A DNA stretch of 64,000 bases from Candidatus Poribacteria bacterium (lineage in GTDB: Bacteria; Poribacteria; WGA-4E; JAJDTR01). The notes under the pieces were generated by a model that saw nothing but the letters and a program-made list of their open reading frames with translations, was not told the origin of the DNA and did not search any database. Below, in pieces: positions 4,464 to 54,161 of the stretch. How positions within the stretch are numbered: the first letter of the stretch is position 1; the number at the start of each line of letters is the position of its first letter. Location of the stretch: the NCBI GenBank assembly GCA_965222225.1, contig CBDCTK010000002.1:2816001-2880000 (forward strand), written 5' to 3'. The translations under genes and the position numbers were made by a program.

Positions 4464-4487
4464 ATCAAGCGAGTGCGATAGAAATCT
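4464..4487 (+). repeat. 35-nt micro-element, internally deleted copy
   Basis: ATCAAGCGAGTGCGATAGAAATCT carries both ends of the consensus, and follows CG. Confidence 0.6.
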
Positions 4488-4547
4488 TCGCCTGCTCGCG
4501 ATAAGAAGTCGCGACCTGGAAATCGCTCCTACAGTTTGCTTGTAGAA

Positions 4548-4577
4548 TACGTGTAAATATGAATGTAAATGACTATA
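4548..4577 (-). repeat. Dispersed 30-nt element end (TATAGTCAT..ACATTCATATTTACACGTA)
   Basis: Reverse complement nearly identical to 53867-53895. Confidence 0.6.
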
Positions 4578-4628
4578 TACGGCTTTGAGCGTTTAACTGT
4601 GTAAGCCCCAAAGAGAAGGAGATCTCAA

Positions 4629-4928
4629 ATGCTAACCGAAGAGACCGTGCTGGAAAATTTAAAACAGATTATAGATCCGGAGGTAGGAATCAACATCGTT
4701 GACATGGGCTTAATCTACGGAGTTGACATAAAGGACGAAATGGTCGGCATTACCATGACTCTGACAAGCCCGGGCTGCCCTGTCGGCCCCCAACTCGTTA
4801 ACGGCACGCAAAACGTCACTCAACAACTGGAAGGAGTTGACGAGGTCAACGTTGATGTTGTTTGGACGCCGCCTTGGACACCGGAGATGATGACGGATGA
4901 CGCCAAAGACGAGTTGGGGATCTTCTGA
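4629..4928 (+). CDS. sufT: DUF59/SufT metal-sulfur cluster assembly factor
   Basis: IIDPEVGINIVDMGLIY, TLTSPGCP and VWTPPWTPEMM motifs. AAGGAG RBS. Confidence 0.92.
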   Translation: MLTEETVLENLKQIIDPEVGINIVDMGLIYGVDIKDEMVGITMTLTSPGCPVGPQLVNGTQNVTQQLEGVDEVNVDVVWTPPWTPEMMTDDAKDELGIF

Positions 4929-4940
4929 ACCGGAACAAAA

Positions 4941-5675
4941 ATGAACTTGTCAAACCAGCAATATCAACCGAAAACGCTTAAGCGGCTCGGTGCCTCCGGC
5001 TTCCTTGTCGAATGGAAGGATGGGCATAAAAGCGAATACCCCTTTCCCTACCTCAGACGTATGTGTCCTTGTGCCGAGTGTTCGGCAATCCGTTACAAAG
5101 GCTTGGATGTTCACTCCCTGTTTGCGCCGGACGGAGACGGTGATTCCTCCCTAATCCAAGTATCCGAAGATGTCCTCCCCCTTGATATCCAGCTTGTCGG
5201 TCGCTACGCGGTGCAGTTTCGATGGAACGATGGACATTCGACTGGCATCTACTCTTTTCAAACGCTCAAGGAAATGTGCCCGTGCCCCGAGTGTACCGCC
5301 AACATTGACGAGAATGAGGTAGACCTTACGATGAATCGCCCCCAATTCCAGCCCGATAAACACGAAATCCCGCCGCGTGGACTCAAGGAGAAACTAGATA
5401 GCGGCCAACAGATTGTGCTGCTTGATGTGCGCGAACCCGGCGAATACGAGATTGCCCACCTTGAAGGCGCAACCTTGATTCCTCTCAACGACCTGCCCCA
5501 AAACACTGATCAGCTAGACCCGCAAACCGAAATTGTGACCTACTGCCACCACGGCATGAGGAGCCTGCATGCTGCCGCATTTCTATACCAGAGCGGGTTC
5601 GAGAACGTCAAGAGTTTGGTGGGCGGCATCGACCAGTGGGCAGTGGAAATCGATCCGACGCTCACTCGTTACTAA
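4941..5675 (+). CDS. DUF971 (GBBH-like N-terminal Zn domain) fused to a rhodanese domain
   Basis: W.DGH.S.Y...YLRRMCPCAEC and VGRYAVQFRWNDGHSTGIYS (DUF971), then LLDVREPGEY, YCHHGMRS and GGIDQW (rhodanese). Confidence 0.85.
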   Translation: MNLSNQQYQPKTLKRLGASGFLVEWKDGHKSEYPFPYLRRMCPCAECSAIRYKGLDVHSLFAPDGDGDSSLIQVSEDVLPLDIQLVGRYAVQFRWNDGHSTGIYSFQTLKEMCPCPECTANIDENEVDLTMNRPQFQPDKHEIPPRGLKEKLDSGQQIVLLDVREPGEYEIAHLEGATLIPLNDLPQNTDQLDPQTEIVTYCHHGMRSLHAAAFLYQSGFENVKSLVGGIDQWAVEIDPTLTRY

Positions 5676-5712
5676 GTAAGCTTACCCACATGAACGCCCA
5701 AACGACCGGACG

Positions 5713-5824
5713 ATCAACTGAGTGGATAGCGAAGGCGATAGAGATCCCATGGTGAGCGATCAAACGAGTGGATAACGATCAAGCAAACGAATAGGTAAGT
5801 GCGATAGAAATCCCCTAGAGATCC
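5713..5824 (+). repeat. Cluster of 35-nt micro-elements (one intact copy plus one copy nested in another)
   Basis: 5713-5747 ATCAACTGAGTGGATAGCGAAGGCGATAGAGATCC; 5759-5777 left part of a second copy; 5778-5813 full copy; 5814-5824 right end. Confidence 0.8.
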
Positions 5825-8402: not shown

Positions 8403-11400
8403 CTACTTCCGTATCAACATCTTCCGCATAGCAGAGAAATCCCCTGCTGTCAGCGTGTAAAAATAGACCCCACTCGCCACCGGTTCACCGAATTCGTTCT
8501 TTCCGTTCCAATAAGCGGCGCGGCTGCGGCTGTAATAAGTCCCCGCAGTTTTGCCCCCCAGCGCCAAACGCCGCACTAGCTGCCCATCCAAGGCATGGAT
8601 AGTCAACGTGACAGCCGCACCTTTTGCTAACTGATACGGGATCCACGTCTCCGGGTTGAACAGGTTTGGAAAGTTCGCGGCAAGGGCGTTGTCTTTGCTT
8701 GCGGTAACCGGTAGTTGCGCCGTAAGGGCGGGACCGTTGTAGTTTGCGATGGCGTCCGCCCCAACGGTAAAGGTGAGAGTACCGTCCACATCCATGTCGC
8801 CATCAAATTCAAACTCGATCGTGATTTTCGTGTCGCTCGTTCGGTCTGGTTGGTGCCAAGGCATTGTTACACCGTCAATGCCGGCTATCTCCACCGCATC
8901 TCGGATGTCAAAGATAGAGTGCTCGAAGGTGCAGCCGCTGAGTGTGAGTGTCACAACGCTGCCCTCCAGCGTTGCTTCCGTTAATGGAGACGGGGTCGAG
9001 GCTGCTACCGATTCCATGGACGCGGTGACCGGTAGTTGCACAGTAAGGGCTAAACCGCTGTATCCTTCAATGGCATCTGTCCCCACGCTGAAGGTGAGGC
9101 TAGCGTCCGCGTCTATATTGCCGTTGAATTCAAGTTTAACAGTTACTTCCGTGTCGCTGACACGGTTGACGTTGAACGATTCAGCAGTGACACCTCGAAC
9201 CCCAGATACTTTTACTGCATCTCTCATGGCCCTGACAGGTGCGTAAACCCTACCATTGAGCGTGAGAGTGACGACGCTCTCATGCAGTGTTGCCTCTGTT
9301 AATGAGGACGCCAATTACCGATTCTTCTCCTCCGGAGACAGCGACTTGTGCAGAGAGTGCGTGGCCGCCGTATCCTGCGATAGCATCTGCTCCCACGGTG
9401 AAGGTGAGGCTAGCGTCAGCATCTATGTCCCCATTGAATTCAATTGCAACAGTTACCGCCGTGTCACTGACACGCTTGGTATTAGATGCGTCAACAGTTG
9501 CTCCGGCAATCCCGGACACCTTCAGTGCACGTCGGATGTTCCAGATAGACTCCACAAAACCCCTACCATTAAGACTCAGAGTGACTGTGCTACCATTCAG
9601 CGTCGATTCTATTAGTGGGGATTCGATAGAAGCTGTTACCGATTCCGTGAATGCGGTGACGGGTAGTTGAGCGGTAAGGGCGGGACCGCTGTATCCAGTA
9701 ATGGCATCTGCCCCCACTGAAGGTAAGGGTAGCGTCCGTATCAATGTCGCCATTGAATTCAAGTTCAACCGTGATTTCCGTGTTGTTCTTCCGGTCGAGT
9801 CCACGCCAAGGAATCGTTACGCCAGCGATACCAGATACCTTTACCCCATCTCCAATAGACTGCGCGTAGGGCCTGCCAACGAGAGTGAGCGTGACGACGC
9901 TCCCATTCAGGATTGCTTCTGTCAAAGGGACGGGAGTCGATGCCGTTAGCGATTCCGTGGACGCCGTGACCGGTAGTTGCGTCGTAAGGGCGGAACCGCC
10001 GTATCCTGCGATGGCATCTGCTCCAACAGTGAAGGTGAGCGTAGCGTCCTCGTCTATGTCGTCATTGAATTCAAGTTTAACAGTTACTTCCGTGTCGCTC
10101 ACCCGGTCTACGTCGAACCATTCGACAGCAAGACCGCGAACCCCAGATACCTTTACCGCTTTTCCGATGTCAACCCTAGACTGCGCGTAGCTCCTGCCAT
10201 TAAGCGTCAGAGTGAAGACGTTCCCATCCAGCGTTCGTTCTGTCAACGGGGACGTGGTTGCGGCGGATACTGATTCCATGGACGCCGTGACCGGTAGTTG
10301 CGCTGTAATGGCGGGACCGCCGTACCCTGCGATGGCATCTGCTCCAACGGTGAAGGTGAGGATAGCGTCCTCATCTATGTCACCTTTGAATTCTAGTTCA
10401 ACTGCCACTTCCGTGTCGCTGATACGATCTACATCGAACCTTTCGACGGTGACTGCGCGAACTCCAGATACATTTAACGCCTCTCGGATGTCAAAGATAG
10501 ACTCCACGTAAGACCTGCCACTGAGCGTGAGAATGACGACGCTCCCATCCAGCGTTGCTTCTGTTAATGGAGACGCGGTTGAAGCTACTACCGTCTCCGT
10601 GACCGCAGTCACAGGAATCTGTGCCGTGAGCGCAAGGCCAAAGTAGCCCGGTACGGCATTTGCCCCGACGGAGAAGTTAAGGGCAGCGTCCGTGTCTATG
10701 TCGCCATTGAATTCAAGTTCGACCGTCACTTCCGTGTCGCTTACGCGCTCGACGTCGAATTTTTCAACCGTGACGCCGGCAATTCCCGAAACCTTTACCG
10801 CATCCATGATGTCAAAGATAGACTGCGCGTAAGCCAAGCGACTAAGCGTGAGCGAGCCAACGCTTCCATGAATCGTTGAATCGTTGGCTCGGTTAACGGC
10901 GACGCGGTCGAAGCGGCGAGTATTTCCGGGGCGCTATCGATAACATCCCAGACTTCCCACTGGCGTATCCGCCCATCTCTGCTTCCGGTAATGGCGGAGT
11001 GTTTGTCGCGGCCAAAAGCCACGGTCGTCACAGGCGACCCATGCCCGAGCAAGGCTCGAACCGTTCTTGTGTCGGGATCCCACAAACGTACGCTCCCGTT
11101 TATATTTGCGCTGGCGAGCACGTCTCCCTCAGGGCTGAAAGCAATGTCCAGCACCGGCGATTCATGGTCGAGCGTGGCTTCCTGTTCTCCGGTGTTCGGG
11201 TTCCACAGCCGCACTGTACCGTCAATACTTGCGCTGGCGAGGAAGCCGCTCGCACGACTGAAGTCGACGCTCAAGACGCTCCCCGTATGCCCGCTGAGCG
11301 TGGCTTGAAGCTCTCCGGTGCCGGGGTGCCACAGCCGCACCGTGCCGTCGGCGCCGCCGTTGCAAGCAATCCACCGTCGGGGCTAAACGCGATGCTCGTA

Positions 11401-13525: not shown

Positions 13526-13550
13526 GTAGGGTGCGCACTGCGCACCAGCC
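13526..13550 (+). repeat. GTAG-type REP palindrome
   Basis: GTAGGGTGCGCACTGCGCACCAGCC, same family as 4420. Confidence 0.85.
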
Positions 13551-13618
13551 TCTTGGTTGCAAGGTGCAATCAAATCGATCGCCCGTTTAATGAACGCTGG
13601 TTTCACCCCATAAACACC

Positions 13619-16382: not shown

Positions 16383-16516
16383 GTAATGGGAGCTCTATGG
16401 GAATTCTATCGTACTCTTTGTTCAGTCCCTTGATCTATCCGTTCCTTTGATCGCTCATTATGGGATTTTCTATCACCCTCCCTACTCGGTCGGTTGATCG
16501 ATAGAGCTCCCATTAC
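16383..16516. repeat. GTAA-type palindrome with perfect 16-bp arms, carrying 35-nt micro-element insertions
   Basis: GTAATGGGAGCTCTAT (16383-16398) and ATAGAGCTCCCATTAC (16501-16516). Minus-strand copies at 16400-16434, 16435-16451 (partial) and 16463-16498. Confidence 0.8.
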
Positions 16517-16519
16517 GCA

Positions 16520-17370: not shown

Positions 17371-17440
17371 GTAGGTTGGGTTGAACGATCAAGCGACCGA
17401 ATAGATAGTGAGTGCGATAGGGATCCCAGTGAAACCCAAC
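17371..17440 (+). repeat. REP GTAGGTTGGGTTGAACG^CAGTGAAACCCAAC interrupted by a micro-element (17388-17426)
   Basis: Removing ATCAAGCGACCGAATAGATAGTGAGTGCGATAGGGATCC leaves a compact GTAG-led palindrome GTTGGGTT...AACCCAAC. Confidence 0.8.
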
Positions 17441-24201: not shown

Positions 24202-24449
24202 AGAACCTGTTTGAATAGTCGGCAGCAAAGCTATTTTTAGTCATTTGAAGACAGGCTTTCATGTTTATGTATTTGCCCGCTATATACCTGTCGCCCCGCT
24301 GGGGCTTAGGTACGCAGGGTTTCGGTGTTTCTACACACCTTCATGAATCTCTATCGCAGTTGCTATTCGCTCCCTTGATCCCACTCTGGGGCTTTTAGAG
24401 GCTGGTGCGCAGTGCGCACCCTACAAACTGTACTTTTCAAACAGGCTCT
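24202..24449. mobile_element. MITE-like element with 18-bp TIRs (AGAGCCTGTTTGAAAAGT) enclosing REPs and a micro-element
   Basis: agaacctgtttgaatagt (24202-24219) matches the reverse complement of acttttcaaacaggctct (24432-24449) at 16/18. Contains a micro-element at 24345-24379 and a REP at 24400-24424. Confidence 0.6.
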
Positions 24450-34623: not shown

Positions 34624-34683
34624 GGCTGGTGAGAACTCTATCGCGCGCGCTATTCGCTTGCTTGATCGCAGTGCGCACCCTAC
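34624..34683 (-). repeat. REP (family of 4420/13526/24400) split by a 35-nt micro-element at 34632-34666
   Basis: Minus strand GTAGGGTGCGCACTGCG[ATCAAGCAAGCGAATAGCGCGCGCGATAGAGTTCT]CACCAGCC. Excision restores the 13526 and 24400 sequence exactly. Confidence 0.9.
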
Positions 34684-39019: not shown

Positions 39020-39089
39020 ATCAAGTGACTGAACAGGATTAACTGAGTGGTTAACGAAGGCGATAGAAGATCCCGTGCGATAGAAATCC
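39020..39089 (+). repeat. Micro-element nested inside a micro-element
   Basis: ATCAAGTGACTGAACAGG[ATTAACTGAGTGGTTAACGAAGGCGATAGAAGATCC]CGTGCGATAGAAATCC, within a GTAG REP. Confidence 0.75.
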
Positions 39090-40862: not shown

Positions 40863-40883
40863 CTGTGGCAATACCTCCTAAAA

Positions 40884-40917: not shown

Positions 40918-40949
40918 AAAACGGTAGTGTCCTGCCTCAATAAACTCGC

Positions 40950-42070: not shown

Positions 42071-42099
42071 ATTATACCGCCAGTTCTCTATGTTTTCAA
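42071..42099 (-). promoter_or_regulatory. Sigma70-type promoter upstream of phosphoesterase-thiolase-DUF35
   Basis: Minus strand TTGAAA-17 nt-TATAAT. Confidence 0.7.
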
Positions 42100-42284
42100 T
42101 AGTGTCTACTTCTACCTCTGCCAAGCTGTAGGACAATGGCTAGGAAAAACGCCCAACATGGTACCGGCGCGCCCAATCACATCATGGATACGGGAGCATA
42201 CACAAGAACGCCCACAGCGACAATAAGCAACAAAAGCAGTGGTAGTAGCACTTGCAAGAGTCCTTGATGAGTCTTCGAAGTCAT
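42096..42284 (-). pseudogene. Small two-helix membrane protein with an in-frame TGA
   Basis: MTSKTHQGLLQVLLPLLLLLIVAVGVLVYAPVSMM*LGAPVPCWAFFLAIVLQLGRGRSRHY*. AAGGA RBS; TGA at 42177-42179. Confidence 0.45.
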
Positions 42285-42359
42285 TGAAGTCCATTCCTTT
42301 CCAATCCGAGTTAGAAATTCAGTGCATGCAAACGGGAAGGCGTTACGCAACCGTTTATG

Positions 42360-42911
42360 TTAAATATCTTCCCCTCCGATGGTGTTAATTACATCAAGCA
42401 ACACAGGCGCGAAGATATTTCTCTGTGCTTCTATCAAGTGAGGGAGATTTACACATTTGGACTGCTTGGGGCTACCGTCAGCGTAGGTGGTTCCTAGCTC
42501 AAACCCTAGATTTCCAATACTGTCACGCGTTATAAAGTTAAACGTCTTACCTGAATCTCTACCCTGATCTGTAGGATGTCCAGCACTATGGTTTCGAACC
42601 TCACGAATCTCCTTTAGGCATGGATTGCAGGTATAATCTTTTTTGAGAGTGCATGTGAAATGTTTTACGGCGTCTTGTTGCAAAATAAGGGCTTGCAATG
42701 CACCATAGACGTACATATATTTGTTGCCAACATCAAGACTATCAATGTTAGTCGTACGGGAAGCTTCCAAACAAAGTACTGTGTCCTTGATAACATCTAA
42801 ACAACTACATAGTTGCATTCTTGTGCGGCGATCTTCCAAAACAGCATGACTGCCTTCCCATTTGTCAATTATGTCACGGACTTCATCAATAAGTGGTTCG
42901 AGATTGTACAT
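42360..42911 (-). CDS. Hypothetical protein with a HEPN-like R-x5-H motif
   Basis: Helical N-terminal region followed by IREVRNHSAGHP. Markedly AT-rich. GGAG RBS. Confidence 0.65.
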   Translation of the reverse strand: MYNLEPLIDEVRDIIDKWEGSHAVLEDRRTRMQLCSCLDVIKDTVLCLEASRTTNIDSLDVGNKYMYVYGALQALILQQDAVKHFTCTLKKDYTCNPCLKEIREVRNHSAGHPTDQGRDSGKTFNFITRDSIGNLGFELGTTYADGSPKQSKCVNLPHLIEAQRNIFAPVLLDVINTIGGEDI

Positions 42912-43052
42912 CCTGGTCTCCTCTGAGTGAATTGTTATGAACTCGCGTCCCGCGCGATCCGTTCACGTATGGTATATCGGCAGACACTCTAGGGATGGGT
43001 GCGTGCATCAGGTCATCTGCCATATTCGATGGAATTTAAGTTCATGTCATGG

Positions 43053-45017
43053 TTAACGTTCTGTTCCGACAGAATCCCTAGAGGCTAAGTCCCACAACAG
43101 AATAGCATCGTCACCACTTCCACTGGCGAGCGTAGTCCCATCAGGAGAGAATGCAACGGAATTCACTACTCCCTTGTGTCCGGCAAGGGTCTTCTTGTGT
43201 TGTCCAGTACGCGTATCCCACAAGCGGATGGTCCAGTCCCTACTTCCACTGGCAAGTGTTCCTCCGTCAGGGGAGAACGCAACAGAGTTGATATCACGCG
43301 TATGACCTATTAGCGTTTGTCTGGGTGAACCTGTAAGCGCGTCCCACAATTTAAGTGAGCTCTTAGAGCCCCATTCTGCAGTGGCGATGGATGCCCCATC
43401 GGGAGAGAAAGCAATGGAGTACACAAGAGCGATGTCACCTATAAGAGTTTGCTTATGTTCCCCAGTGTACACGTTCCATAAGCGAATCTCGCTCGATGCC
43501 CCAGAGGCAATTGTAGCCCCGTCGGGGGAAAAGGCGACACATTTGATTTCATTCGTATGTCCCAAGGTTTGCTTGTGTATCCCGGTATGCGCGTCCCACA
43601 AACGAACCGTCTTGTCCGAACTCCCGCTGGCAAGAGTAAGTCCACCAGGAGAAAATGCAACTGACGTAACTAGACCTGTATGTCCTGCAAGAGTTCGAAT
43701 GTGTTTTCCAGTGTACGCATCCCACAGACGAATCGTATTATCCGCACTTCCACTAGCAAGAATATTCCTACCGGGGGAAAAGGCAGTAGATGTAACGTAC
43801 TCTCTGTGCCCCAATAGCATCCGAATGTGTTCACCGGTACGGGCATTCCACAAGCGAATGGCGGGTTGAGAACTCTCCTCACCACTAGTAAGTATGAAGC
43901 CCGTTGGGGAAAACGCCAAGCAGGTGACATGCCCTAAGGTAGGCTCTACCAGAGTGTGCAGGTGTCTGCCCGAGCGCACATCCCATAATCGAATTGACAT
44001 GTCCTTAAACCTTCTAAAAAAACTGTATCCTCCACCACTTGTAAGGGTAAGTCCGTCAGTAGAAAACGCAACGGAACTAACTTGACCCGTATGACCTTCA
44101 AGGGTATGGAGGTGTCTTCCCGAGCGTACATCCCACAAACGAATAGTCTTGTCCTCATAGTCACCGCCACTGGCAAGCGTAAACCCATCGGGGGAGAATG
44201 TTACGCTACTGACCCAATCCGTGTGCCCAACAAGGGTTTGTTTGTGCTGCCCTGTATGCGTGTCCCACAAACGAATAGTCTTGTCCTTATACCCTCCACC
44301 GCTGGCAAGCATAAGCCCATCGGGAGAAAACGCGATGGAGCAAATTCCACCCATATGACCGACAAGAGTATGCTTGTGTTGTCCCGTGCGCACATCCCAC
44401 AAACGAATAGTCTTGTCCTCATCAGCCTCGTCTTTTAGCAAGTCACTGAGCACGTGGTAACTTCCGCTGGCAAGTGTAAGTCCGTCGGGGGAAAATGTAA
44501 CAGTGCTAGTCGTACCCGTATGGCCGGGAAGAACCTTGAGTTGTGTTCCGCAGCGAACATCCCACAAACGAATTGTTCTATCATCGTCGCCTGAACTGCT
44601 GGCTAGCGTTTTCCCATCGGGGGAAAAGGCGACCGAAGTCACGACACCCCTATGCCCAATGAGAAGTTGCTTGAGTTCCCCAGTGCGAGCATCCCACAAG
44701 CGAACTTCCCAACTCCCACTGGCAAGCGTGAGTCCATCCGGAGAGAATGCAACGCAACGGACAACTCCCCTATGGCCCGTGAGCAGAGAGATTTCGGAAC
44801 CGCTGTGTGCATCATACAACCAGACGCCGATAGAACTCGCCACCGCGATTCGATCTCCGCTTGGAGAACACGCGATTTCAGATATCCAACCTTTGCCGAT
44901 ACGGAACTTTGCACCTTCGGGCAAACCCCATTGCGTATAATCATGGGCGACAACATCCTGTAGAAACCAGAAGTAAACAAACAAAACACAGAGCTTGAAG
45001 AACCGAATTTCTTTCAT
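43053..45017 (-). CDS. Secreted WD40-repeat protein (14 repeats)
   Basis: Signal peptide, LPEGAKFRIGKG, and 14 GH...AFSPDG.TLASG..D.TIRLWD-type units. Confidence 0.93.
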   Translation of the reverse strand: MKEIRFFKLCVLFVYFWFLQDVVAHDYTQWGLPEGAKFRIGKGWISEIACSPSGDRIAVASSIGVWLYDAHSGSEISLLTGHRGVVRCVAFSPDGLTLASGSWEVRLWDARTGELKQLLIGHRGVVTSVAFSPDGKTLASSSGDDDRTIRLWDVRCGTQLKVLPGHTGTTSTVTFSPDGLTLASGSYHVLSDLLKDEADEDKTIRLWDVRTGQHKHTLVGHMGGICSIAFSPDGLMLASGGGYKDKTIRLWDTHTGQHKQTLVGHTDWVSSVTFSPDGFTLASGGDYEDKTIRLWDVRSGRHLHTLEGHTGQVSSVAFSTDGLTLTSGGGYSFFRRFKDMSIRLWDVRSGRHLHTLVEPTLGHVTCLAFSPTGFILTSGEESSQPAIRLWNARTGEHIRMLLGHREYVTSTAFSPGRNILASGSADNTIRLWDAYTGKHIRTLAGHTGLVTSVAFSPGGLTLASGSSDKTVRLWDAHTGIHKQTLGHTNEIKCVAFSPDGATIASGASSEIRLWNVYTGEHKQTLIGDIALVYSIAFSPDGASIATAEWGSKSSLKLWDALTGSPRQTLIGHTRDINSVAFSPDGGTLASGSRDWTIRLWDTRTGQHKKTLAGHKGVVNSVAFSPDGTTLASGSGDDAILLWDLASRDSVGTER

Positions 45018-45351
45018 GGATAATCCTCTTTGGTGTGGTTGGGTGCACATGTCCAAAGCTGATTAATGCATTGGTAACGCACCTCGTTAGTCGAAAAACC
45101 TAACCCAATGTTTCTTTCGAGTAGGTGTTGGTGCAACCCATGACGATGATATTTCCAGAGTAACTGTTTGGGGTAATCACGTACCATCTCCTAATCCGTG
45201 TAATCTGGGTAATCCGTTTAATCCGCGATTCAGACAATTGTCAAAATGCCTCGGATAAAACCTTCAAAGTGTATAGCAATTCCGCTCTTCCATCCTTCCT
45301 CACGCTCCACTTACCACCAAAATTACATGCGATTGCCCTGCGAGCTGACTC

Positions 45352-46098
45352 TTATTGCGCGGTGTAGCCGCCATCTACAAACAGGGAGGTGCCTGTGACC
45401 CAAGCGGACTCGTCGGAGGCGAGGTACAGCGCGGCGGAGGCAACGTCCTCGGGCGTCCCCACCCTACCGATGGGGTGCATGGCAGCGATTTCGTTGCCGC
45501 GTTGCTTCAGGTCCTCTCGGTTGAAGTCTATCTCTATCCAGGCGGGGCAGACCGTATTCACGCGGATCTTGTGCTCGGCAAAGTCCAGCGCCATACACTT
45601 CGTCAGCAGTTCGATACCGCCCTTGGCGGCGTTATAGGCGCCCTGTTTCCGCTGGCCGACGTGACCCGAGATTGAGGAGCAGTTGACAATGGCGCCGCCG
45701 TTCTCAATCATGTGGGGAAGGGCGTATTTGGAGCACAGGAAATAACCGCGCAGGTTTATCCCCATAAGACTATCCCACTCCTCTTCGGTCAACTCCATAA
45801 TGGTTTTCCCGATACCGATGAACACACCGGCGTTATTGACAAGGATATCAAGCTTTCCGTACTTCGACATGGTTTGGTCAATCATGTGTTGCACCTGATC
45901 TGTCTTCGACACATCAATAGAGAGGTAGCTTGCCTCTCCGCCTTCCGACTTAATCTGATTCACGGTGTCTTCGATTGGTTTCGATCTTCTGCCGGTAATC
46001 ATGACCTTTGCACCCTCTCGGGCAAAGCGTACCGCCGTACCGCGACCTATTCCGGTTCCGCCGCCAGTGATAATGGTGACCTTGTTCTGTAATCTCAT
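45352..46098 (-). CDS. Short-chain dehydrogenase/reductase
   Basis: [17 protein letters not shown] and VDGGYTAQ. Confidence 0.95.
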
Positions 46099-46250
46099 TG
46101 GTTGCCTACTCCTAAGGTTAAACACGTTTTCATTCTAAAACCAAATGGAAAATTGTGGAAGTGGTGGGAAGTGGCCAGTCGCCAGTGACCTGTGACCAGT
46201 GAATGAAACGGATTTTCTGACCGCTAGCCAATGACCACTGGACACTGCTT

Positions 46251-47207
46251 TCAAGATGGCTTGACAACTCCAAGCGGTTGTTTTCCCTCGAAGACCTTCA
46301 CCACATTTTCGGCTGCACCGCGCGCCATGCGGTACCACGCCTCCTCGGTTGATGAAGCCGCGTGCGGTCCAAGCACCACGTTTTCGATTGATAGCAAGGG
46401 ATTGTTCGTGGGAGGCTCCTGAGAGAACACATCGAGTCCCGCCCCCGCAATCCAACCCGCCTGGAGCGCTTTGACAAGGCTCGCTTCGTGGACAATAGGT
46501 CCGCGGGCGGTATTGATGAGATAGGCTGTCGGTTTCATCAATTTCAGTTGGGTTTCGCCAATCAAGCCTGACGTTTCCGGGCTTAGAGGCGAGTGGATGC
46601 TGACGAAATCGGCGCGCGCCAGGAGTCCATTCAATGGGAGGTAGCTTACGCCGTACTCCGCCGCGAACGCCTCATCTTGATAGAGGTCATACGCCAGAAT
46701 CGTCATGTCGAATCCGCGCGCCCGCTTCGCTAGGCGCTTGCCAATTTTGCCCAGTCCGATAATTCCCAGCGTCTTTTGAAATAGCTCGACGCCGATGTGA
46801 GGCGACCAACCGCCGTTGCGAACGTTCCTATCTCCCTGTGGTATGTGCCGGGCGACGCCCAGCATCAATCCCATCGCCAACTCGGCGACACTTTCGCTAT
46901 TGGCTTCCGGCGTAGTCGTCACGATGATGCCGCGTTCCGACGCCGCCTGAAGGTCAATCGTGTCGAATCCGGCGCCGGTGCGAGAAATAATCTTCAGATT
47001 GTCCGCAGCGGAAATCACGCGTCTAGTGAAGTGGTGACTCCCCGAGATTATTCCATCTACGCCTTCAATGAGCGAGATAAGATCGTCCTCGGTCAATGTG
47101 TTTTCGCGATAATGCACGGAAACCGTGCAATTACGGGCTTCCAAGAAAGAGAGAATCTCGCTCGCATCCCATTCGCGCGGAAAGGTGGTAATCAATACGT
47201 TTCGCAT
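46251..47207 (-). CDS. D-2-hydroxyacid (phosphoglycerate-like) dehydrogenase
   Basis: GIIGLGKIG, INTARG, GAGLDVF..EP and PH; no ACT domain. Confidence 0.92.
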   Translation of the reverse strand: MRNVLITTFPREWDASEILSFLEARNCTVSVHYRENTLTEDDLISLIEGVDGIISGSHHFTRRVISAADNLKIISRTGAGFDTIDLQAASERGIIVTTTPEANSESVAELAMGLMLGVARHIPQGDRNVRNGGWSPHIGVELFQKTLGIIGLGKIGKRLAKRARGFDMTILAYDLYQDEAFAAEYGVSYLPLNGLLARADFVSIHSPLSPETSGLIGETQLKLMKPTAYLINTARGPIVHEASLVKALQAGWIAGAGLDVFSQEPPTNNPLLSIENVVLGPHAASSTEEAWYRMARGAAENVVKVFEGKQPLGVVKPS

Positions 47208-47237
47208 TTGTTGCCTCTTGCTATATTTTGCGTTCCC

Positions 47238-47364
47238 GTAGGAGCGATCTCCGAATTGCGACCTATCGGGAATCGGAGCCGCGATCGGGGAGAAGATCCT
47301 TATGGGATCTCTATCGCACTCACTAATCGCTCGCTTGATCTATTCGCTCAGTTGATCTCCTACA
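47238..47364. repeat. Inverted REP pair (GTAGGAGCGATCTCC family) with nested micro-elements
   Basis: Minus-strand copy at 47305-47339 (ATCAAGCGAGCGATTAGTGAGTGCGATAGAGATCC) inside a second copy whose left part is 47340-47356. Confidence 0.78.
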
Positions 47365-47479
47365 GTGGGTAGCGGATAGGTGTTAAGGGGGGAAGAGAGG
47401 AGGGCTGGCACTAGCCGCTGCCGGCGTCTTTGCCAATCTTAAACCCGGTACTTTTGAATGTTCCAATACCATCGTTAGC

Positions 47480-48637
47480 CTACGGCACGACAACCACCTT
47501 CATGCACTCCTCGGGCTCCATCGACTGCAGCATCGCCGATTCCGTCTGGAGGAGAGGGTATTCGTGCGACACAAACTTTTCGAACGGGAAGGAATCGGCA
47601 TACCTTTGCATGAGTTCCATGCTAGGGGTATAACCCGTGAAGGGGTGGTTGGTCATGCCGATGAGACGAATGTTCTTTGAACAGAAGTGGCGGTGCGGGC
47701 TGAGCGATACCTCTCCGGTCTCGGCGAAGTTCCCCGGCTCAAGGTAAATGCCTCCTTTGCGCGTCATGTCCAGTCCTTCGGGCACGACCTCGGCGATTCC
47801 CGCGCACTCGACAACAATGTCGGCGCCGCGTCCGTGTGTCAGAGAGCGAACAAACTCGATACGCTCCTCCGACGTGGTTTCGGCGGCGTTGACGGTGTGG
47901 TCGGCGCCAAACTCCTCCGCCAGTCCCAAACGATATTCGGAACGGTCAATGGCGATGATGTTGCCGGCACCCATCACGCGCGCCTTGATGAGGTGGCAGA
48001 TCCCCATAGGACCGACGCCCTGAATGACAACGGTGCTGCCGGTGGCGAAACCGTCGCCCGTGAGGGTAAATAGCTCCTTCGTCTTGTCCAAGTTATAGCT
48101 GACCGCCATCAACTCCGCCATGACCGCGACGCGCAAGGGTATGCCTTCGGGCACTTTGTACAGGAACGCGTTGGGCAGGATGTACATGTATTCCGCCCAA
48201 CCGCCGAACAGATGGGGTGATTCGGCGGAGGTGAAGGCGTTGCCGTAACCGCGCAGGTTTTCGCACCACGGAAAAGCAAACGTGTGCCGACACTCGTAGC
48301 ATTCCCCGCACACGACATCCGGACACAATGCGACCCGATTTCCGACGCGCAGGGGTTCGCCGTTGAAATCGAGACGTGGACGCACCCTGTCGTTAATCTC
48401 GGCGACGACGCCAATGATTTCGTGCCCCGGAATGATTGGAAACGGCGTATCGGATTCGGCATCGGTACCGGCGTACTGCTTCGTCTCGCCGCGCCATGTG
48501 TGTTTGTCCGTGCCGCAGATGCCGCACATTTCGACCTTGAGGAGCACCGCGCCGTCTTCCAATTTCGGAAGGGGGAATTCCTGAATTTCAATCTTTCCCG
48601 GATGAACCATTACTGCCGCGCGTACCTTGTCGCTCAT
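47480..48637 (-). CDS. Zinc-dependent alcohol/polyol dehydrogenase (MDR)
   Basis: CGTD.H, GHE, C..C..C.......C and GVGPMG. Confidence 0.95.
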   Translation of the reverse strand: MSDKVRAAVMVHPGKIEIQEFPLPKLEDGAVLLKVEMCGICGTDKHTWRGETKQYAGTDAESDTPFPIIPGHEIIGVVAEINDRVRPRLDFNGEPLRVGNRVALCPDVVCGECYECRHTFAFPWCENLRGYGNAFTSAESPHLFGGWAEYMYILPNAFLYKVPEGIPLRVAVMAELMAVSYNLDKTKELFTLTGDGFATGSTVVIQGVGPMGICHLIKARVMGAGNIIAIDRSEYRLGLAEEFGADHTVNAAETTSEERIEFVRSLTHGRGADIVVECAGIAEVVPEGLDMTRKGGIYLEPGNFAETGEVSLSPHRHFCSKNIRLIGMTNHPFTGYTPSMELMQRYADSFPFEKFVSHEYPLLQTESAMLQSMEPEECMKVVVVP

Positions 48638-48859
48638 ATGCCTTCCTCTGATGATTTGCGGTGTGCTATTTGTGTTACCTACAGGACTACGCAGTTCGGT
48701 TTGTGGTAACGATTTTCGGTTCTTCTGTAGGAGCGAGCTTTGCTCGCGACCGGGAGATCTCTCCTACAAACCCCCGGTTTCTGTGTCCTGCTGATTGCAC
48801 GATTCAAGCGCGTTTCCCGGGATTGCACATCGCGGTATCCAGATCTCCGTAAAAAAGGC

Positions 48860-50665
48860 TTACCAGATAATGTCCTTGATTTCGGGAATAAAGCGAGTTT
48901 TTTGGATTGGTTTGCCACTGGAACGATTCTCATAGAGCGGGAGCGCGACGCCCTTGGGGTCAATGGCGACAACATCTGACCCGCGCATCGTCAATTTGTA
49001 CGGAATTTCACCAATCACCCGATGCACGTCCCGCTCAGGTACGGGGAAGGTTATGGTGACTTGGTCGCCCGGATTCAGCAAGCTAATCTTCACGTAACGG
49101 CCATCAGTTATATAGCGACAGGGTTGATTGCCAACGCTGACCTTCACGTCGTCGAGCGAGCACCATTCCGCCATTCTGACGGCTACTTTCGAGGCGTCCT
49201 TAATGTGCAGGACAACTTTGCCCTCCACCGGCAGATAGCTATCCACATCCAGCCAGGTTGAAGCCCGGTTCAGGAGAAGATTGACGCGCACCTCGTCCGA
49301 CTCCTTCGTTACAATGCTGTCCCAGACATAGTAAAAGGTTCTTGCCCCATTCGCCGTGCAACAGTGCATGATAGAATGACCCGTTAGTTTTGGGCCCTGA
49401 TCCGTTTGTTCAACATGAAGCCCATCGTTGGCGCGCATCCAGCCAAGGAACGACCCCACGGAGCGTTCCGGGATGTTCCGTGTGTCCGGGTGCGAGTGTC
49501 CACCGGGTCCAGTAGAGAAGTAGCTGTCCGGTATGCCGTCGAGGAAATCGGCATCGCACATCTGACCTTCGGCATACACATTTCGCACCCATCGATCGAC
49601 ATCATCCCAGTAATCGCCCAGTCCGGCACGGGTCAAATAGAGCGCAAGGAGCACCATGTCCGCGACCTCGCAAATCTCTGTGGTGTTGCCCGCTCTGCCA
49701 AGATACCAGTCCGACCCCGGCATGGCTTCCGGGAAGAAGCCGATTAACGGATCGCCCATTTCGCGTGCCCAGCGGTAACAGGCATCCACACGCTCCAGAA
49801 TCTTGCGGTCGTTTATGGCGTAACCGTATTCACACACCGCTATGAGCGCGTATAAACTGTGATGAAAATGCCAGAAGGTGTATCGCCCATCGTCGTTGTT
49901 GAACATGCGCGCCAGGGCCCACCGCGCCAAGCCACCAGCCAGTTCGAGCGCGGGTTCGTAGCCGGTTACGCGATAGAACAGTGCAGAGCCGTGGCCGAGT
50001 GCGCCCACCGAGTATATCATGCTGAAAATCGGGTCGTTATCCGCGAGGGAACCGTCTTCAATGCCCACGGTTGGCTCGTCGGCATCGGGTGGAACCGTCT
50101 CGCCCGGGCGAAATCGTCCTTTCCACAAGAATCGGAATCCGTCCTTCTCGCGCGTGAGTGCCAGCAGCCGGTCAACCTTTCGCTTGCCAGCTTCAATCCA
50201 ACGCGAATCGTCGTCAACCTGTGCCAACATTGAAAGCGCTAACAGCAGCCTTCCCTCCGCCCAAACCTCAGAGAACGGACGGGGTTCGGTAAACTGTTCC
50301 AGCGTATCCGTTGGGCAATAGGTCAAACCGTCCTCACCCAGCAGATCGAGTTGCACGCGGAGTACCTCCAGATCCGCGTCCAGTCCGTCGGTGTTGCCCG
50401 ACGCCAACCGGCAGACGGTTAGCGCTTCAAGGAACTTGGCTGGGATATTCAGGTAGGCGTCGGTGATATGGCTTGGATAGAGTTCGGTCGGACGCTGGCA
50501 GAAATCCACGATGAATCCCAAAGCCCACTTTTCGTCGGGATACCATACCTCGGTAAGTGCATTCACCGCAAGCCCCATTCGATCCGCCAAATCGAGGGTA
50601 TCAGGCACCGTGGCTTCGTAACGCTCGCCGACAGTACATTTCGACATTGGGTTGTTGTTGAGCAT
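48860..50665 (-). CDS. GH127/GH146-like (alpha/alpha)6 glycoside hydrolase-related protein
   Basis: TTEICEVAD and HCCTANG resemble the E-x-C...CC Zn site of GH127. C-terminal beta-sandwich (SYLP.EG.V, VRMAEW). Confidence 0.65.
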   Translation of the reverse strand: MLNNNPMSKCTVGERYEATVPDTLDLADRMGLAVNALTEVWYPDEKWALGFIVDFCQRPTELYPSHITDAYLNIPAKFLEALTVCRLASGNTDGLDADLEVLRVQLDLLGEDGLTYCPTDTLEQFTEPRPFSEVWAEGRLLLALSMLAQVDDDSRWIEAGKRKVDRLLALTREKDGFRFLWKGRFRPGETVPPDADEPTVGIEDGSLADNDPIFSMIYSVGALGHGSALFYRVTGYEPALELAGGLARWALARMFNNDDGRYTFWHFHHSLYALIAVCEYGYAINDRKILERVDACYRWAREMGDPLIGFFPEAMPGSDWYLGRAGNTTEICEVADMVLLALYLTRAGLGDYWDDVDRWVRNVYAEGQMCDADFLDGIPDSYFSTGPGGHSHPDTRNIPERSVGSFLGWMRANDGLHVEQTDQGPKLTGHSIMHCCTANGARTFYYVWDSIVTKESDEVRVNLLLNRASTWLDVDSYLPVEGKVVLHIKDASKVAVRMAEWCSLDDVKVSVGNQPCRYITDGRYVKISLLNPGDQVTITFPVPERDVHRVIGEIPYKLTMRGSDVVAIDPKGVALPLYENRSSGKPIQKTRFIPEIKDIIW

Positions 50666-51526: not shown

Positions 51527-51734
51527 AGATGTTTTTTCCTTCGTGATATTTCGCGCTGTAAAAGATTCTAGTCGCTACTCCTGTCGATTTGGATTGGATC
51601 TGAGAATTTCCGGTGGTTTCACGGATGCCAGCGTCGATGGCGGGTAGTAAGATGGGAAATCGGCGACTTTATAATCGCTAATCTCACCCAATAACAAATC
51701 CTGCCATGCCGCAGGAGCCGCGTCGAATACGAAT

Positions 51735-52442
51735 TTAGATTTCGGCGGAGCGCGCCGTCAGCTCTTGCAAGCGCGGGGAGAATGTCTCGTAGACTTCACG
51801 CTTGACCAGAGGCCAAGCCGTGGGTCCCCGGTACAACACCGCCGGCATGTAATATGCGTTCGCAAGCATGCGGTGTTGGTCGGTTGTCGTGTTTGCGCCG
51901 GATCGATGCCAAAGTCCGTTGTGATAGACAAACACCGTACCCTTCTTTCCCGTGACCGGCATCTCCTGTGGGTAGCTGTCTCGGCTGGGACCCCGCTTCG
52001 TGAGATGGCTGAAAGGCACAATTCGCGTGGCGCCATTCTCCGGTGTGCTGTCGGTGAGCATCCAGAAGACTTGAAGTCCGTTCCAAGGCGGGATAAGGGA
52101 GCTAGGATCGGCCGCTAACGCGCCGCGTGTTGGCCAATCGGCGTGCAGGCTGCCAGCGGGAGTTCCGGGCTTGCACCACTTTAGCGCCGCGTTGTTTGCC
52201 AAGAAATACCCGTCACCAAGCACCGCTTCGGCAATCTCAAGAATCAGCGGATGGGTGCATAACGGCGCCAGGTCCGGAATCTCGTTCAACGACCCTTCAA
52301 GGCTAATGTACGCCGACCCCATCGACTCCATAATCGACCGCGCCATGCCATCGAGCCGTTCCGCCTCTTGCGGGTTCAGCAACCCCTCGAAAATACAATA
52401 ACCTTCTTCTGCCAATCTATCCTTGATTTCGTTGATTTCCAT
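51735..52442 (-). CDS. Phytanoyl-CoA dioxygenase (PhyH) family protein
   Basis: LHAD, NGATRIVPFSH and LWHRSG.N.T...R. Confidence 0.9.
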   Translation of the reverse strand: MEINEIKDRLAEEGYCIFEGLLNPQEAERLDGMARSIMESMGSAYISLEGSLNEIPDLAPLCTHPLILEIAEAVLGDGYFLANNAALKWCKPGTPAGSLHADWPTRGALAADPSSLIPPWNGLQVFWMLTDSTPENGATRIVPFSHLTKRGPSRDSYPQEMPVTGKKGTVFVYHNGLWHRSGANTTTDQHRMLANAYYMPAVLYRGPTAWPLVKREVYETFSPRLQELTARSAEI

Positions 52443-52634
52443 CTTATTCCCTCTGTACCTACATGGAAGCTGCTACGCCGATTGGTGATTGAGATGAAAC
52501 CCAATCATATATGATGTGCACGTAGATTTGGACATTGCATGTATCCTCCTCTCGGAAGGAATACACTATAGCCGATTTGGTTTCGGTTGGCAACAGAAAT
52601 CAGGGGTGTTCCTTCGCTACACCTTTGGAATGAT

Positions 52635-53843
52635 TTATCTTCTGTACCGTGACGAAGGCCCCTCTTCACGGTAGGTCGGGGGCGGCGGATCCAACCATTT
52701 CACGAAGCTATCCTTTATTGCGAAGGCGAAAAAGTGGTTACCTCCGGGGGTGTAGTGACCGGTGTAGTAACGCCGAGCATATTCCTCCGGCGAGCAGTTG
52801 AACAGTTTGAACTCCTCAAAGTGCGCCCGGAGAGAATCGTAAAACAGAAATCCCTGTTCGTTCAGGTAGTCAACAAAGATCCGGTCGAATCGCGGACGGT
52901 TATGGCAAGCGTGAATGACGTCATTCGACGGATAACTGAGAAGAACCATCAACTCCTTTCTTTCCTCTATTGCGAATCTCCGTACCTTGTCTACTATGTA
53001 CATGCTCGACCGCAGTGCGCAGGTTTGCAGTAAGTTCTGTGCAGTTTTGGCAATGGCTTCCGGCGAGCTGAAGTCCGCGGTCATTCCTAGCGCATCCGCC
53101 GTTGCCCTCAATACTCCGAGATTGAGGTCCTTCACGCCTAGCTGAGCGAGGCGGGCTTGGACGTCAAAGTCGTCTTTGAAGGTTTCATACAGGTGCGCGC
53201 TATCACAGAGTTGATACAGCAAATCGGGCGTCGAATAGGGGTTTTCATGTTCCTCAAACTCGGTGGTTTCCGGGTTGAGACGAACATGCGCCCAAGGGTT
53301 GGCATTGAACATAAACGCCGAAATCTCCGATAAGGCGCTCGATTTGAAAAGCCGAGGATCTCCCGGCAGATGAAGCAGTCGCCAGGTGTAGATGCTTCGG
53401 AAATGATCGTCCGAGAAGATGTTGAGCACGATGTATTTGGCGGATACTTCGGTCTTTTCCTCTCGAAGCATCCGTCTGTAGGCTTGATAGACGCCGTGAC
53501 CGCCGACTCCAAAGTTGCGAATCGGCTCGCCAAAGTGGGCGGCGAGGTACTCTTGCCAGGATTCACCGTCATTAACCTGATCGCACTGCGTGAAACTGTT
53601 TCCGTATGTATTTATTCGGCAGGGTCGATCCGCAAAGTTTGACATCAGCCGCTCGACGAATGTACCGTAACGAGAGATTGTATAGCTTTCGTCGAGGCCG
53701 TCCTTAAGCACGGAGTTCTTACGGATATACCCCAAATCGGAATCGAAAACGGCGTAGTTGTGGGCGTTCGAATCGAAAAACCTATCAACGTGTTCTCGCT
53801 TCAGCGTCAACGCTTCAAAAAATTCTCGTGTCGTAATGCTCAT
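52635..53843 (-). CDS. SGNH/GDSL-like hydrolase
   Basis: YGNSFT (block I), NFGVGGHG (block II) and GHYTPGGNH (block V-like). Confidence 0.7.
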   Translation of the reverse strand: MSITTREFFEALTLKREHVDRFFDSNAHNYAVFDSDLGYIRKNSVLKDGLDESYTISRYGTFVERLMSNFADRPCRINTYGNSFTQCDQVNDGESWQEYLAAHFGEPIRNFGVGGHGVYQAYRRMLREEKTEVSAKYIVLNIFSDDHFRSIYTWRLLHLPGDPRLFKSSALSEISAFMFNANPWAHVRLNPETTEFEEHENPYSTPDLLYQLCDSAHLYETFKDDFDVQARLAQLGVKDLNLGVLRATADALGMTADFSSPEAIAKTAQNLLQTCALRSSMYIVDKVRRFAIEERKELMVLLSYPSNDVIHACHNRPRFDRIFVDYLNEQGFLFYDSLRAHFEEFKLFNCSPEEYARRYYTGHYTPGGNHFFAFAIKDSFVKWLDPPPPTYREEGPSSRYRR

Positions 53844-53866
53844 TTTGGATGTTTTCCCTCCATAGC

Positions 53867-54161
53867 TATAGTCATCACATTCATATTTACACGTACTTAA
53901 AGAGAGACATTGGCGATTTGAAGATTGTTACGACAAGCCTACCGTAGGAGTTCAAGCGAACGGATAGTGAGTGCAATAGAAAGTCCCGTGCGATAGAGAT
54001 TCCTCTCCCGGTCGCGACCTCTTGTCGCGAGTAAAACTCGCTCCTACAGAAGACGTGCAATAAAGGGATCTCTATCGTCCTCGCTATTCGCTCCCTTGAT
54101 CGCCACTCCAAACAGAACTGCGTAAATCCTATATGTGTAATTCTTAGTTGCAATGACTATG
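53867..54161. mobile_element. Composite intergenic element (ATAGTCAT.. inverted ends, REP pair, micro-elements)
   Basis: tatagtcatcaca at the left end and tgcaatgactat at the right. Micro-elements at 53951-53986 (+), 53987-54003 (partial) and 54066-54100 (-). Confidence 0.6.

Follow-up and report, generated by a model that had tools for sequence, protein, structure and literature searches.

How does a DNA repeat shorter than 40 nt, in which no coding capacity was found, come to occupy about 1000 places in one bacterial genome? The question is raised by a 64,000-nt stretch (the window, G000:C2:2816001-2880000) of a Candidatus Poribacteria genome (G000; 5.70 Mb, 50% G+C, two contigs, 94.9% complete), in which a reading of the sequence alone had pointed to a fixed-length micro-element sitting inside repetitive extragenic palindromes (REPs). 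The element is referred to here as the 37-mer. The best explanation of the data is a very small non-autonomous family of mobile DNA, with a core of 37 nt and a unit of about 35 nt, present in about 1000 copies per genome within one genus of Poribacteria. The copying of very short dispersed repeats, such as REPs and small dispersed repeats (SDRs), is a long-standing open question, and most families give few clues to their recognition. The clues given by the 37-mer are a fixed unit, a strand-specific covarying hairpin, a tag-distance rule in both target and element, and ten species with empty and filled sites.

The 37-mer repeat family

A search profile made from ten window copies gave 1653 matches in the whole G000 genome at E<10 and 984 at E<1e-3. 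Of the latter, 647 were near full length, and 607 of these carried no insertion or deletion. The logo of the 607 indel-free copies, which are the set used below unless another is named, gives the 37-nt core GATCAA nn GA ny GrATAr n GA nn GCGATAGArATyCC C, in which nearly invariant positions (91-99%) alternate with seven variable ones. The information content falls to about 0 within 3 nt outside either edge of the core. The GATCAA strand is 64% purine, in agreement with the purine-rich strand noticed earlier. In its length, copy number (984 matches) and extragenic position (850 of the 984), the 37-mer resembles REPs, which are 20-40 nt long, high-copy and extragenic. Clusters of the 37-mer consist of a single copy in 588 of 752 cases and the spacing is irregular, and thus the repeat-spacer order of CRISPR repeats is absent. 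Rfam covariance models gave 0 matches at the gathering score over the window and 0 at E<=1 around the best copy.

The genome scan proposed in the sequence-only reading confirmed a sharp-edged family; the repeat is real, and its family is far larger than the window alone suggests. All 12 positions named in that reading carry the repeat, 11 full-length profile matches were obtained in the window (E 6.7e-11 to 7.5e-3), and the partial copies it claimed were recovered by the profile at 4464, 39075, 47340 and 53988. The literal consensus given there was over-strict: it found 3 matches at up to 3 mismatches (0 in 100 shuffles), because the seven internal positions vary freely. The copies in the window, together with one intact host repeat, are as follows.

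4464..4486, plus strand: internally deleted copy, with the 5' end fused to the 3' tail and the inner hairpin gone (profile positions 16-37 only, E 0.077)
5712..5748, plus strand: full 37-nt copy, GATCAACTGAGTGGATAG...GATCCC (profile E 7.3e-9)
5754..5776, plus strand: 5' half of an outer copy, GATCAAACGAGTGGATAAC, host of the nested copy that follows (sequence reading)
5777..5814, plus strand: full copy with a 1-nt insertion (38 nt), then the tail of the outer copy, CTAGAGATCCC (profile E 5.1e-8)
13526..13553, plus strand: intact ("empty") GTAGGGTGCGCACTGCGCACC REP, the repeat that hosts the copy at 34631 (matching 24397-24424 at 100% in inverted orientation)
16399..16435, minus strand: full copy, diverged (profile E 7.7e-7)
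16463..16499, minus strand: full copy, diverged (profile E 2.7e-7)
17387..17427, plus strand: copy of 41 nt, lengthened by an internal 4-nt duplication of ATAG and lying within the loop of a host hairpin, GTAGGTTGGGTTGAAC...AGTGAAACCCAAC (profile E 2.9e-8)
24344..24380, minus strand: full copy within a CCCCAGAGTGG...TGAAGGTGT repeat, adjoining an intact GTAG-REP at 24397-24424 (profile E 1.1e-7)
34631..34667, minus strand: full copy within the REP GTAGGGTGCGCACTGC^..ACC, the orthologous REP being empty in four sister species (profile match)
39020..39036, plus strand: 5' half of an outer copy, GATCAAGTGACTGAACAG (sequence reading)
39037..39074, plus strand: nested degenerate full copy (38 nt), then the tail of the outer copy at 39075-39089 (profile E 7.5e-3 and 5.5)
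47304..47340, minus strand: full copy, the best match in the window, abutting the 5' half of another copy at 47340-47358 (profile E 6.7e-11)
53950..53986, plus strand: full copy right after GTAGGA, then a 3' tail fragment at 53988-54004 (profile E 6e-8)
54065..54101, minus strand: full copy (profile E 3.6e-10)

Empty and filled sites

Window positions 30000-49999 were compared with the orthologous regions of eight sister species (83-93% identity in genes), and both empty and filled alleles, the comparison suggested earlier, were found. The REP that hosts the copy at 34631 is intact and empty in G001, G009, G002 and G004, is filled elsewhere in G003, and holds two copies in G006. Around the copy at 47304, the sister species differ in which REPs of the intergenic region are occupied and in the orientation of the copies, and G008 has none there. 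The cleanest case is a GTAG-REP hairpin that reads GTAGGCGGGGCATCTTGCCCCGCC in G008 (empty) and GTAGGCGGGG + 35 nt (ATCAAG...GATCC) + CATCTTGCCCCGCC in G001 and G009. The filled allele differs unambiguously by exactly 35 nt, inserted between the G and the C of GTAGGCGGGG^CATCTTGCCCC, and no base was duplicated or lost.

Between the close relatives G001 and G009, a synteny block of 53 kb (about 94-95% identity) was usable after re-anchoring and contained 41 full copies. Of these, 6 form 3 orthologous pairs shared by the two genomes, and another 2 are cleanly missing from the counterpart genome. One extra nested 35-nt copy was detected in G001 as compared with G009. No collinearity was found in a 200-kb comparison of the same two genomes.

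Paralogous empty sites are also present in G000. The joined flanks of 181 of the 607 copies match an uninterrupted site elsewhere in the genome. In 167 filtered pairs of filled and empty sites, the empty site has 0-5 extra bases at the position of the 37-mer, most commonly GCG, G, GCA, A and GC. As a rule a G directly precedes the left junction, while the right junction shifts by 1-2 bases in the paralogue comparisons. No target duplication was detected in any empty/filled comparison made, orthologous or paralogous, as had been claimed. Insertion after G and before C holds for most left junctions and for the cleanest case, although the junctions are not fully uniform. Likewise, the unit of 35-36 nt proposed at first agrees with the net insertion of 35 nt in the cleanest cases, while the conserved core is 37 nt and the paralogue comparisons give 34-36 nt. 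[quoted passage not shown]

Contigs from public sequencing runs contain joints that skip 37-41 nt at 17387 and 24342. The sides of these joints are short (19-62 nt) and lie within high-copy repeats, so that the joints may stem from paralogues.

A covarying hairpin on one strand

With the G of GATCAA numbered as position 3, the four column pairs of highest mutual information in the whole alignment are 13-21, 10-24, 9-25 and 14-20. The numbers of Watson-Crick (WC), G·T and other combinations are 431, 148 and 28 for pair 9-25, 553, 18 and 36 for pair 10-24, 575, 13 and 19 for pair 13-21, and 511, 73 and 23 for pair 14-20, each pair occurring in three or four pair types at high frequency. Between the covarying pairs, G11·A23 and A12·G22 are invariant and form a tandem G·A arranged as 5'-GA/3'-AG, mostly within the Y-GA-R context, where sheared tandem G·A pairs are stable. 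Among the wobbles in the four pairs, G·T (about 251) is far more frequent than A·C (about 36), and therefore the helix belongs to the purine-rich GATCAA strand only. As the covariation defines it, this strand adopts an irregular hairpin in which two WC pairs are followed by the tandem G·A/A·G, a further two pairs and, as loop, GRATA, and which may be extended by an ATC/GAT outer helix. The earlier description of the element as non-palindromic had missed this internal hairpin; the element is not structureless. Across the 607 copies the stem takes 164 variant forms, which are met again in other species. An 8-nt tail (AGAGATCC) carries an ATAG tag located 3 nt 3' of the stem; another ATAG lies in the loop.

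The covariation was examined again in a replication set of 101 copies, of which 93, all distinct, came from two sister species (620 kb) and 8 from the window. The four-pair helix was paired in 93.1% of cells, and 182 cells were changed on both sides, all four pairs included. The covariation score, 0.667, was reached by 0 of 500 shuffles, and sliding the partners by 1-3 columns gave 0.008-0.16. The two G·A pairs were never standard pairs. The helix on this one strand is under selection. When set beside the palindromic stem-loop of REPs, the 37-mer has four WC pairs plus a tandem G·A as defined by covariation, no sequence palindrome, and a hairpin that is unstable with DNA parameters.

With RNA parameters, the covarying hairpin has a mean energy of -2.5 kcal/mol and is included in the minimum free energy (MFE) structure of 388 of 512 copies, as compared with 27 of 512 with DNA parameters. 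Four of five purine-strand copies folded as RNA showed the same rod, lengthened by the invariant ATC/GAT helix, whose start is the first base of the insert; the fifth, from 54065-54101, gave a differing MFE fold. These folds, as well as the tolerance of G·U-type wobbles on one strand only, would fit an alternative in which the 37-mer acts at the level of RNA, as a small structured motif (a tandem G·A helix of k-turn-like flavour) copied via RNA or kept for protein binding in transcripts, and one reverse transcriptase (RT)-like ORF (open reading frame) does exist in the genome. We consider this alternative improbable. Folded as RNA, the copies have unremarkable z-scores relative to shuffles (-0.64 to +0.47), there is no Rfam match, the RT-like ORF is weak (26.8 bits) and, in the manner of a defence gene, adjoins a type I restriction gene, and the orientation of copies relative to flanking genes is near random, following GC skew instead (see below). 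Our reading of the folding results is that the covarying helix needs a partner protein or non-canonical stacking and is not a free-standing stable hairpin.

Landing sites, tag register and nesting

The flank contexts of the 607 copies form 444 clusters, of which 385 are singletons, as expected for the fixed-length micro-element dispersed in unrelated contexts that the sequence-only reading had described. In 150 copies, against 9.7 expected from intergenic DNA, the tetranucleotide (G/A)TA(G/A) has its first base exactly 9 nt ahead of the G of GATCAA, and in 37 more it begins at -8; after collapsing the contexts, it is found at -9 or -8 in 111 of 444. Within the last 13 nt of the left flank, GTAG is present in 143 copies and the complementary CTAC in 7. 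About a quarter of the copies are thus located exactly 6 nt 3' of a (G/A)TA(G/A) tag, on the strand of the tag, a position that corresponds to the 5' arm of GTAG-REP hairpins. The same register is found twice within the element itself: ATAG plus 6 nt in the loop is the site of nested copies, and counting 6 nt on from the ATAG of the tail leads to C38, the 3' end of the element.

The window contains representatives of several distinct families of GTAG-tagged REPs, GTAGGGTGCGCACTGCGCACC and CTGTAGGAGCGAGC...GCTCGCGAC among them (4418-4458, 13526-13553, 24386-24426, 48721-48750 and 54024-54053). Their core motifs, which are what was counted, have 16-95 exact genomic copies each, and the GTAGGGTGCGCACTGCGCACC REP family occurs 62 times in the genome. 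The proposal that the element sits in REP palindromes is correct for the GTAG-type REP hairpins, which are invaded without duplication, but too narrow, since other 37-mers, a CCCCAGNGGGG hairpin repeat and a terminator-like hairpin serve as hosts as well. The folding of host hairpins was uninformative, because the joined flanks (-3.87 kcal/mol) are barely lower than random intergenic 50-mers (-3.56 kcal/mol). A guide-like code between stem variants and flanks was considered and discarded, no stem position being included among the 15 strongest element-flank correlations.

Nesting is frequent. The ATAG tail of an outer copy is located directly 3' of 109 of the 607 copies, in 76 distinct outer/inner combinations, and the 5' half of another copy is present in the left flank of 164; the share of copies nested in other copies is about 18-29%. 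Among 116 pairs of neighbours less than 100 nt apart, 90% are direct, and among copies 2-100 kb apart 60-65% still are. No peak of inverted doublets was detected among the 116 pairs, so that the 37-mer does not have the organization of REPINs (inverted REP doublets). The existing head-to-tail tandems (about seven) read ...ATCCC(C)TCAAG.... The pure rule that any tag plus 6 nt is a target was rejected, as the dimers it predicts, ...ATCC joined to ATCAA..., had no match. Two dense clusters were observed, one with 15 copies within 1.1 kb in both orientations (G000:C2:2705983-2707066) and the other with 9 copies, all direct (G000:C2:1578264-1578671).

Several composites of element and REP are multi-copy and spread as units, and therefore the copy number overstates the number of insertion events. 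In one set of 19 identical copies, 18 occupy GTAG..GTGC^CTGCG-type sites that belong to a single REP family and differ in their flank letters (GTATGGTGC, ATAGGGTGC, GCAGGGTGC), and the 19th is in GTAGGAGC^TCTCC. This recurrence of the same stem variant with the same host repeat, and the composite families, would be expected if the 37-mer were immobile, having entered a few hairpin repeats long ago and having since been copied passively by amplification of REPs with their REP-associated tyrosine transposases (RAYTs), by gene conversion or by template switching during replication. The fast rearrangement of repeat-rich intergenic regions (33 of the 41 copies in the G001/G009 block could not be scored) and the ragged junctions, which fit copy-choice better than precise transposition, also speak for passive copying. 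It nevertheless appears unlikely in view of the 444 context clusters, 385 of them singletons, with flank information of about 0, and of the 109 nested copies in 76 combinations. Furthermore, one orthologous REP is filled at different positions in different species, no other filled site shares flanking homology with the exact 35-nt insertion seen between orthologues, and the precise register of tag plus 6 nt is kept in unrelated hosts.

Gene context and orientation

The ORF calls used throughout are our own crude calls and cover 82% of the DNA. Outside these calls lie 850 of the 984 matches (about 86%), and only 13 of 981 copies were found deep inside ORF calls of at least 250 aa. For the latter, either the genes are disrupted or the calls are wrong. 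One such copy, at G000:C2:2921272-2921310, lies deep within a 2419-aa ORF call on the opposite strand. The statement that all window copies are intergenic is supported for 11 of the 12, while the remaining copy overlaps an ORF call of 112 aa that consists of repeats.

Both orientations were represented on the chromosome, as noticed earlier, with 534 copies on the plus strand and 447 on the minus strand. Relative to co-directional flanking genes, 309 copies have the same orientation and 261 the opposite one. The distribution over convergent, divergent and co-directional spacers follows spacer length, and there is no preferred intergenic class. The plus-strand fraction of copies is correlated with GC skew (Spearman -0.56, p 2e-5; 51 bins of 100 kb), as compared with -0.10 for gene strand in 100-kb bins, the hairpin strand tending toward the C-rich strand. 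This orientation bias speaks for a DNA process tied to replication and not for a function tied to transcripts. Its sign might, as a speculation, reflect preferential loss from the exposed strand.

Distribution among Poribacteria

A degenerate pattern, allowing up to 1 mismatch, was used to survey 176 Poribacteria genomes; the reversed-pattern control gave 0 in all. All 10 genomes of the genus to which the window belongs carry 281-772 copies, a 2.7-fold range. Outside this genus, 11-17 copies were detected in 4 genomes of one genus of another family, 13 in one further genome and 1-3 in four others. The remaining 157 of the 176 genomes have no copies, and high copy number is confined to one genus. 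The strict pattern gave 772 copies in G001 and 411 in its close relative G009, an about twofold difference, and 80 profile matches, mostly on one strand, lie within 200 kb of G001 (G001:C1:3816001-4016000); this suggests a recent expansion of the 37-mer in G001. A cyanobacterial origin was considered and rejected, the HIP1 octamer GCGATCGC not being enriched in the genome (120 copies).

The patchy distribution bears on the view that the 37-mer serves the host, as a hairpin recognized by a cellular protein, for example in chromosome organization or in replication and repair, and kept by selection. The strong conservation of the invariant positions in about 1000 copies and across 10 species, the pairing kept in 93-95% of cells and the orientation that tracks GC skew would be natural for such a site. 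Presence and absence, however, differ between sister species at orthologous sites, copies pile up within each other and within other repeats, copy number varies 2.7-fold in the genus with most of the phylum devoid of copies, and no intergenic class is preferred. We therefore regard a host-serving site as very improbable.

Search for the mobilizing enzyme

Five Y1_Tnp (PF01797) loci are present in G000. One intact gene of 157 aa (Y1a) passes the NCBIfam IS200/IS605 cut-off, two other intact genes resemble RAYTs below the cut-off, and two further loci are broken. Y1a lies at C2:3080255-3080728, and RAYT-like genes at C2:2563962-2564705 and C2:3727535-3728017. In-frame damage was noticed in two RAYT-like genes. 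Inverted 37-mers flank Y1a and one Y1 fragment, an arrangement found for 7 of 4352 ORF calls. With 37-mers on both sides, 52 of the 4352 ORF calls were obtained, and only Y1a was identified among them, recurring genes not having been looked for further. The 37-mer was rejected as the cognate end of Y1a: at 14 loci in 13 genomes the conserved flanks are a CCCCAGNGGGGCGACAGGTG inverted hairpin repeat, and the 37-mer is either inserted there or absent. In a REP/REPIN-RAYT system, a RAYT gene is expected between its cognate repeats; no RAYT bordered by pristine 37-mers was found. RAYT-type homologues are widespread among the relatives and are flanked by their own GTAG-REPs.

The IS200-type Y1 gene at G000:C2:3080100-3081000 is flanked in many Poribacteria by an inverted hairpin repeat, AAAGCCCCAG(A/C)GGGGCGACAGGTG, which is also dispersed, often as ...GGTGTATAG units. 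This is a REPtron-like arrangement for an IS200-family protein.

An IS110-type DEDD transposase was not found in this 94.9% complete genome. The sole RT-like ORF (670 aa, G000:C2:4499560-4501572, 26.8 bits, below the Pfam cut-off) adjoins a type I restriction R-subunit gene and may be a defence-type RT. The master copy beside a gene, for which the sequence-only reading had suggested looking, was not detected, Y1a being the one gene identified among the 52 ORF calls with copies on both sides. Since neither coding capacity nor an adjacent master gene was found, mobilization in trans is the natural inference, and HUH/Y1 genes are present. To this extent the earlier proposal of an enzyme encoded elsewhere is supported, while no specific enzyme could be tied to the element.

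A model for mobilization

We propose, with a probability of roughly 45%, that the 37-mer is a REP/SDR-like non-autonomous single-strand DNA element that is cut and joined in trans by a Y1/HUH enzyme and acts as a parasite of the REP/RAYT system. The element would move as single-stranded DNA. A tyrosine HUH (Y1) enzyme of the RAYT or IS200 type, supplied in trans, would read the tag and the hairpin, and would cut and join the element. To our knowledge, HUH enzymes are the one known class in which one-strand hairpin reading, cuts at a fixed distance and the lack of duplication are combined. The 37-mer would behave as a REP/RAYT parasite because its tag register equals that of GTAG-REPs. Part of the copy number would come from hitch-hiking inside REPs that are themselves copied.

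Several observations weigh against this proposal. The first group concerns the junctions and sites. HUH-type "peel and paste" is seamless, and the junctions of the 37-mer are ragged: single-gap paralogue alignments give net lengths of +34 (56), +35 (26) and +36 (29), and nested copies lack 1-2 nt of the outer copy. The ATAG+6 end of the element itself is not used as a target, the search for ...ATYC N0-4 ATCAA... giving 0 matches. In the G001/G009 block, 33 of the 41 copies were unscorable because the repeat-rich spacers had rearranged, leaving 8 scored. The second group concerns the DNA strand. With DNA parameters the covarying hairpin is unstable, with a mean of +0.7 kcal/mol and presence in the MFE structure of 27 of 512 copies, and shuffled sequences fold at least as well as the 37-mers. 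As to the strand bias, its sign is opposite to that of the active (top) strand of IS608. The third group concerns the candidate enzymes. The flanks of the Y1 genes are other hairpin repeats (CCCCAGNGGGG, GTAGGAGCGAYCTCC and GTAGTAGGCA), in which the 37-mer occurs only as an insert and not in all species. Y1a homologues were detected in 27 of 41 relatives, including genera without the 37-mer. RAYT-type homologues likewise occur in many genomes that lack the 37-mer, while two genomes rich in it gave none at the threshold chosen, and no Y1a-type or RAYT-type gene was exclusive to element-bearing genomes across the 41 relatives.

A more specific version of the single-strand DNA proposal is that the 37-mer is a hyper-parasite of the REP/RAYT system, a single-stranded micro-transposon of 35 nt in which one protein-read hairpin and a tag mimicking the GTAG of REPs in the same register allow it to borrow the Y1 enzyme of the host and to invade both REPs and itself. 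This version is possible but doubtful. If it is true, the about 1000 copies with 164 freely combining complementary stem variants represent a natural mutational scan of what the enzyme needs, and the 37-mer is the smallest structured mobile DNA described. The family reduces the question of copying to oligonucleotide-level tests with few candidate Y1 enzymes. For the annotation of Poribacteria genomes, about 1000 copies together with the host REPs speed intergenic evolution and can break assemblies.

Other repeats

Two long coding repeat arrays are present in the window at 8700-10870 and 43080-44780, with units of about 321 nt (6-7 copies) and 126-132 nt. The 126-132-nt units end in CCCACAA on the plus strand and resemble WD40-type repeats on the minus strand. 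Both arrays look like eukaryote-like repeat proteins, as expected for sponge symbionts. Elsewhere in the genome, around G000:C2:~1547511, an unrelated repeat forms a regular array (20-mers at least 4 times, 50-95 nt spacing), which may be a CRISPR array or a tandem repeat.

Comparison with known systems

The SDRs of Nostoc/Anabaena, from the work of Elhai et al. in 2008, are reportedly 21-27 nt long. The 37-mer is like these SDRs, as they are reported, in being very short with sharp edges, in being nested in repeats and in its own copies, in lacking target duplication, and in having empty orthologous sites. It differs in its host, Poribacteria instead of cyanobacteria, and in its length of 35-37 nt. 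The likeness is one of behaviour only. We know of no SDR with a tandem-G·A hairpin of four covarying pairs and a register of tag plus 6 nt.

The HUH enzymes of IS200/IS605 insertion sequences (ISs) and of RAYTs read a hairpin on one strand and cut at a fixed distance from a short motif without duplication; in IS200/IS605 the left cut falls within flanking DNA and the right cut inside the element. The 37-mer shares with IS200/IS605 the lack of target duplication, insertion 3' of a short motif, a one-strand hairpin, the link with the replication strand and fixed motif-to-cut distances. Unlike IS200/IS605, it has a single hairpin rather than two, is 35 nt long rather than hundreds of nt, and has junctions that are not always seamless; no cognate tnpA was identified. 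As a derivative of IS200/IS605, it would thus combine a single hairpin and the tag+6 register at both target and 3' end with an IS200-type gene that is present in the genome but not exclusive to element-bearing genomes. IS1397 and ISs of the IS110 family also target REP hairpins. The preference for REP hairpins as sites is shared with the 37-mer, while these ISs are kilobase-sized and encode their own transposase. That REPs serve as IS targets is noted by Di Nocera et al. 2013 (PMC3733652).

In the REP/REPIN-RAYT literature considered here, the elements are described as extragenic hairpins of 20-40 nt, non-autonomous, in hundreds of copies, with a tetranucleotide tag by the hairpin (Bertels & Rainey 2011, PMC3116915; Di Nocera et al. 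2013, PMC3733652). The 37-mer resembles them in size, extragenic position, hairpin formation, hundreds of copies, lack of autonomy, a tag by the hairpin and the presence of Y1 genes in the genome. In contrast to GTAG/CGTC-REPs, its 5' end is GATCAA, its ATAG tag lies 3' of the hairpin and not as GTAG at the 5' foot, and GTAG is found in the host flank. Its stem is composed of four WC pairs plus G·A, it forms no inverted doublets, and it inserts into REPs rather than being one.

No published description of the 37-mer in Poribacteria was found in the literature searched, and 13-mers of the element gave only a chance match to a plant microsatellite. As these classes are defined, the 37-mer is not a GTAG/CGTC-tagged REP, a REPIN, a MITE, a CRISPR repeat or a member of an Rfam family. 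In behaviour, the closest known systems are the cyanobacterial SDRs and the REP/REPIN-RAYT systems.

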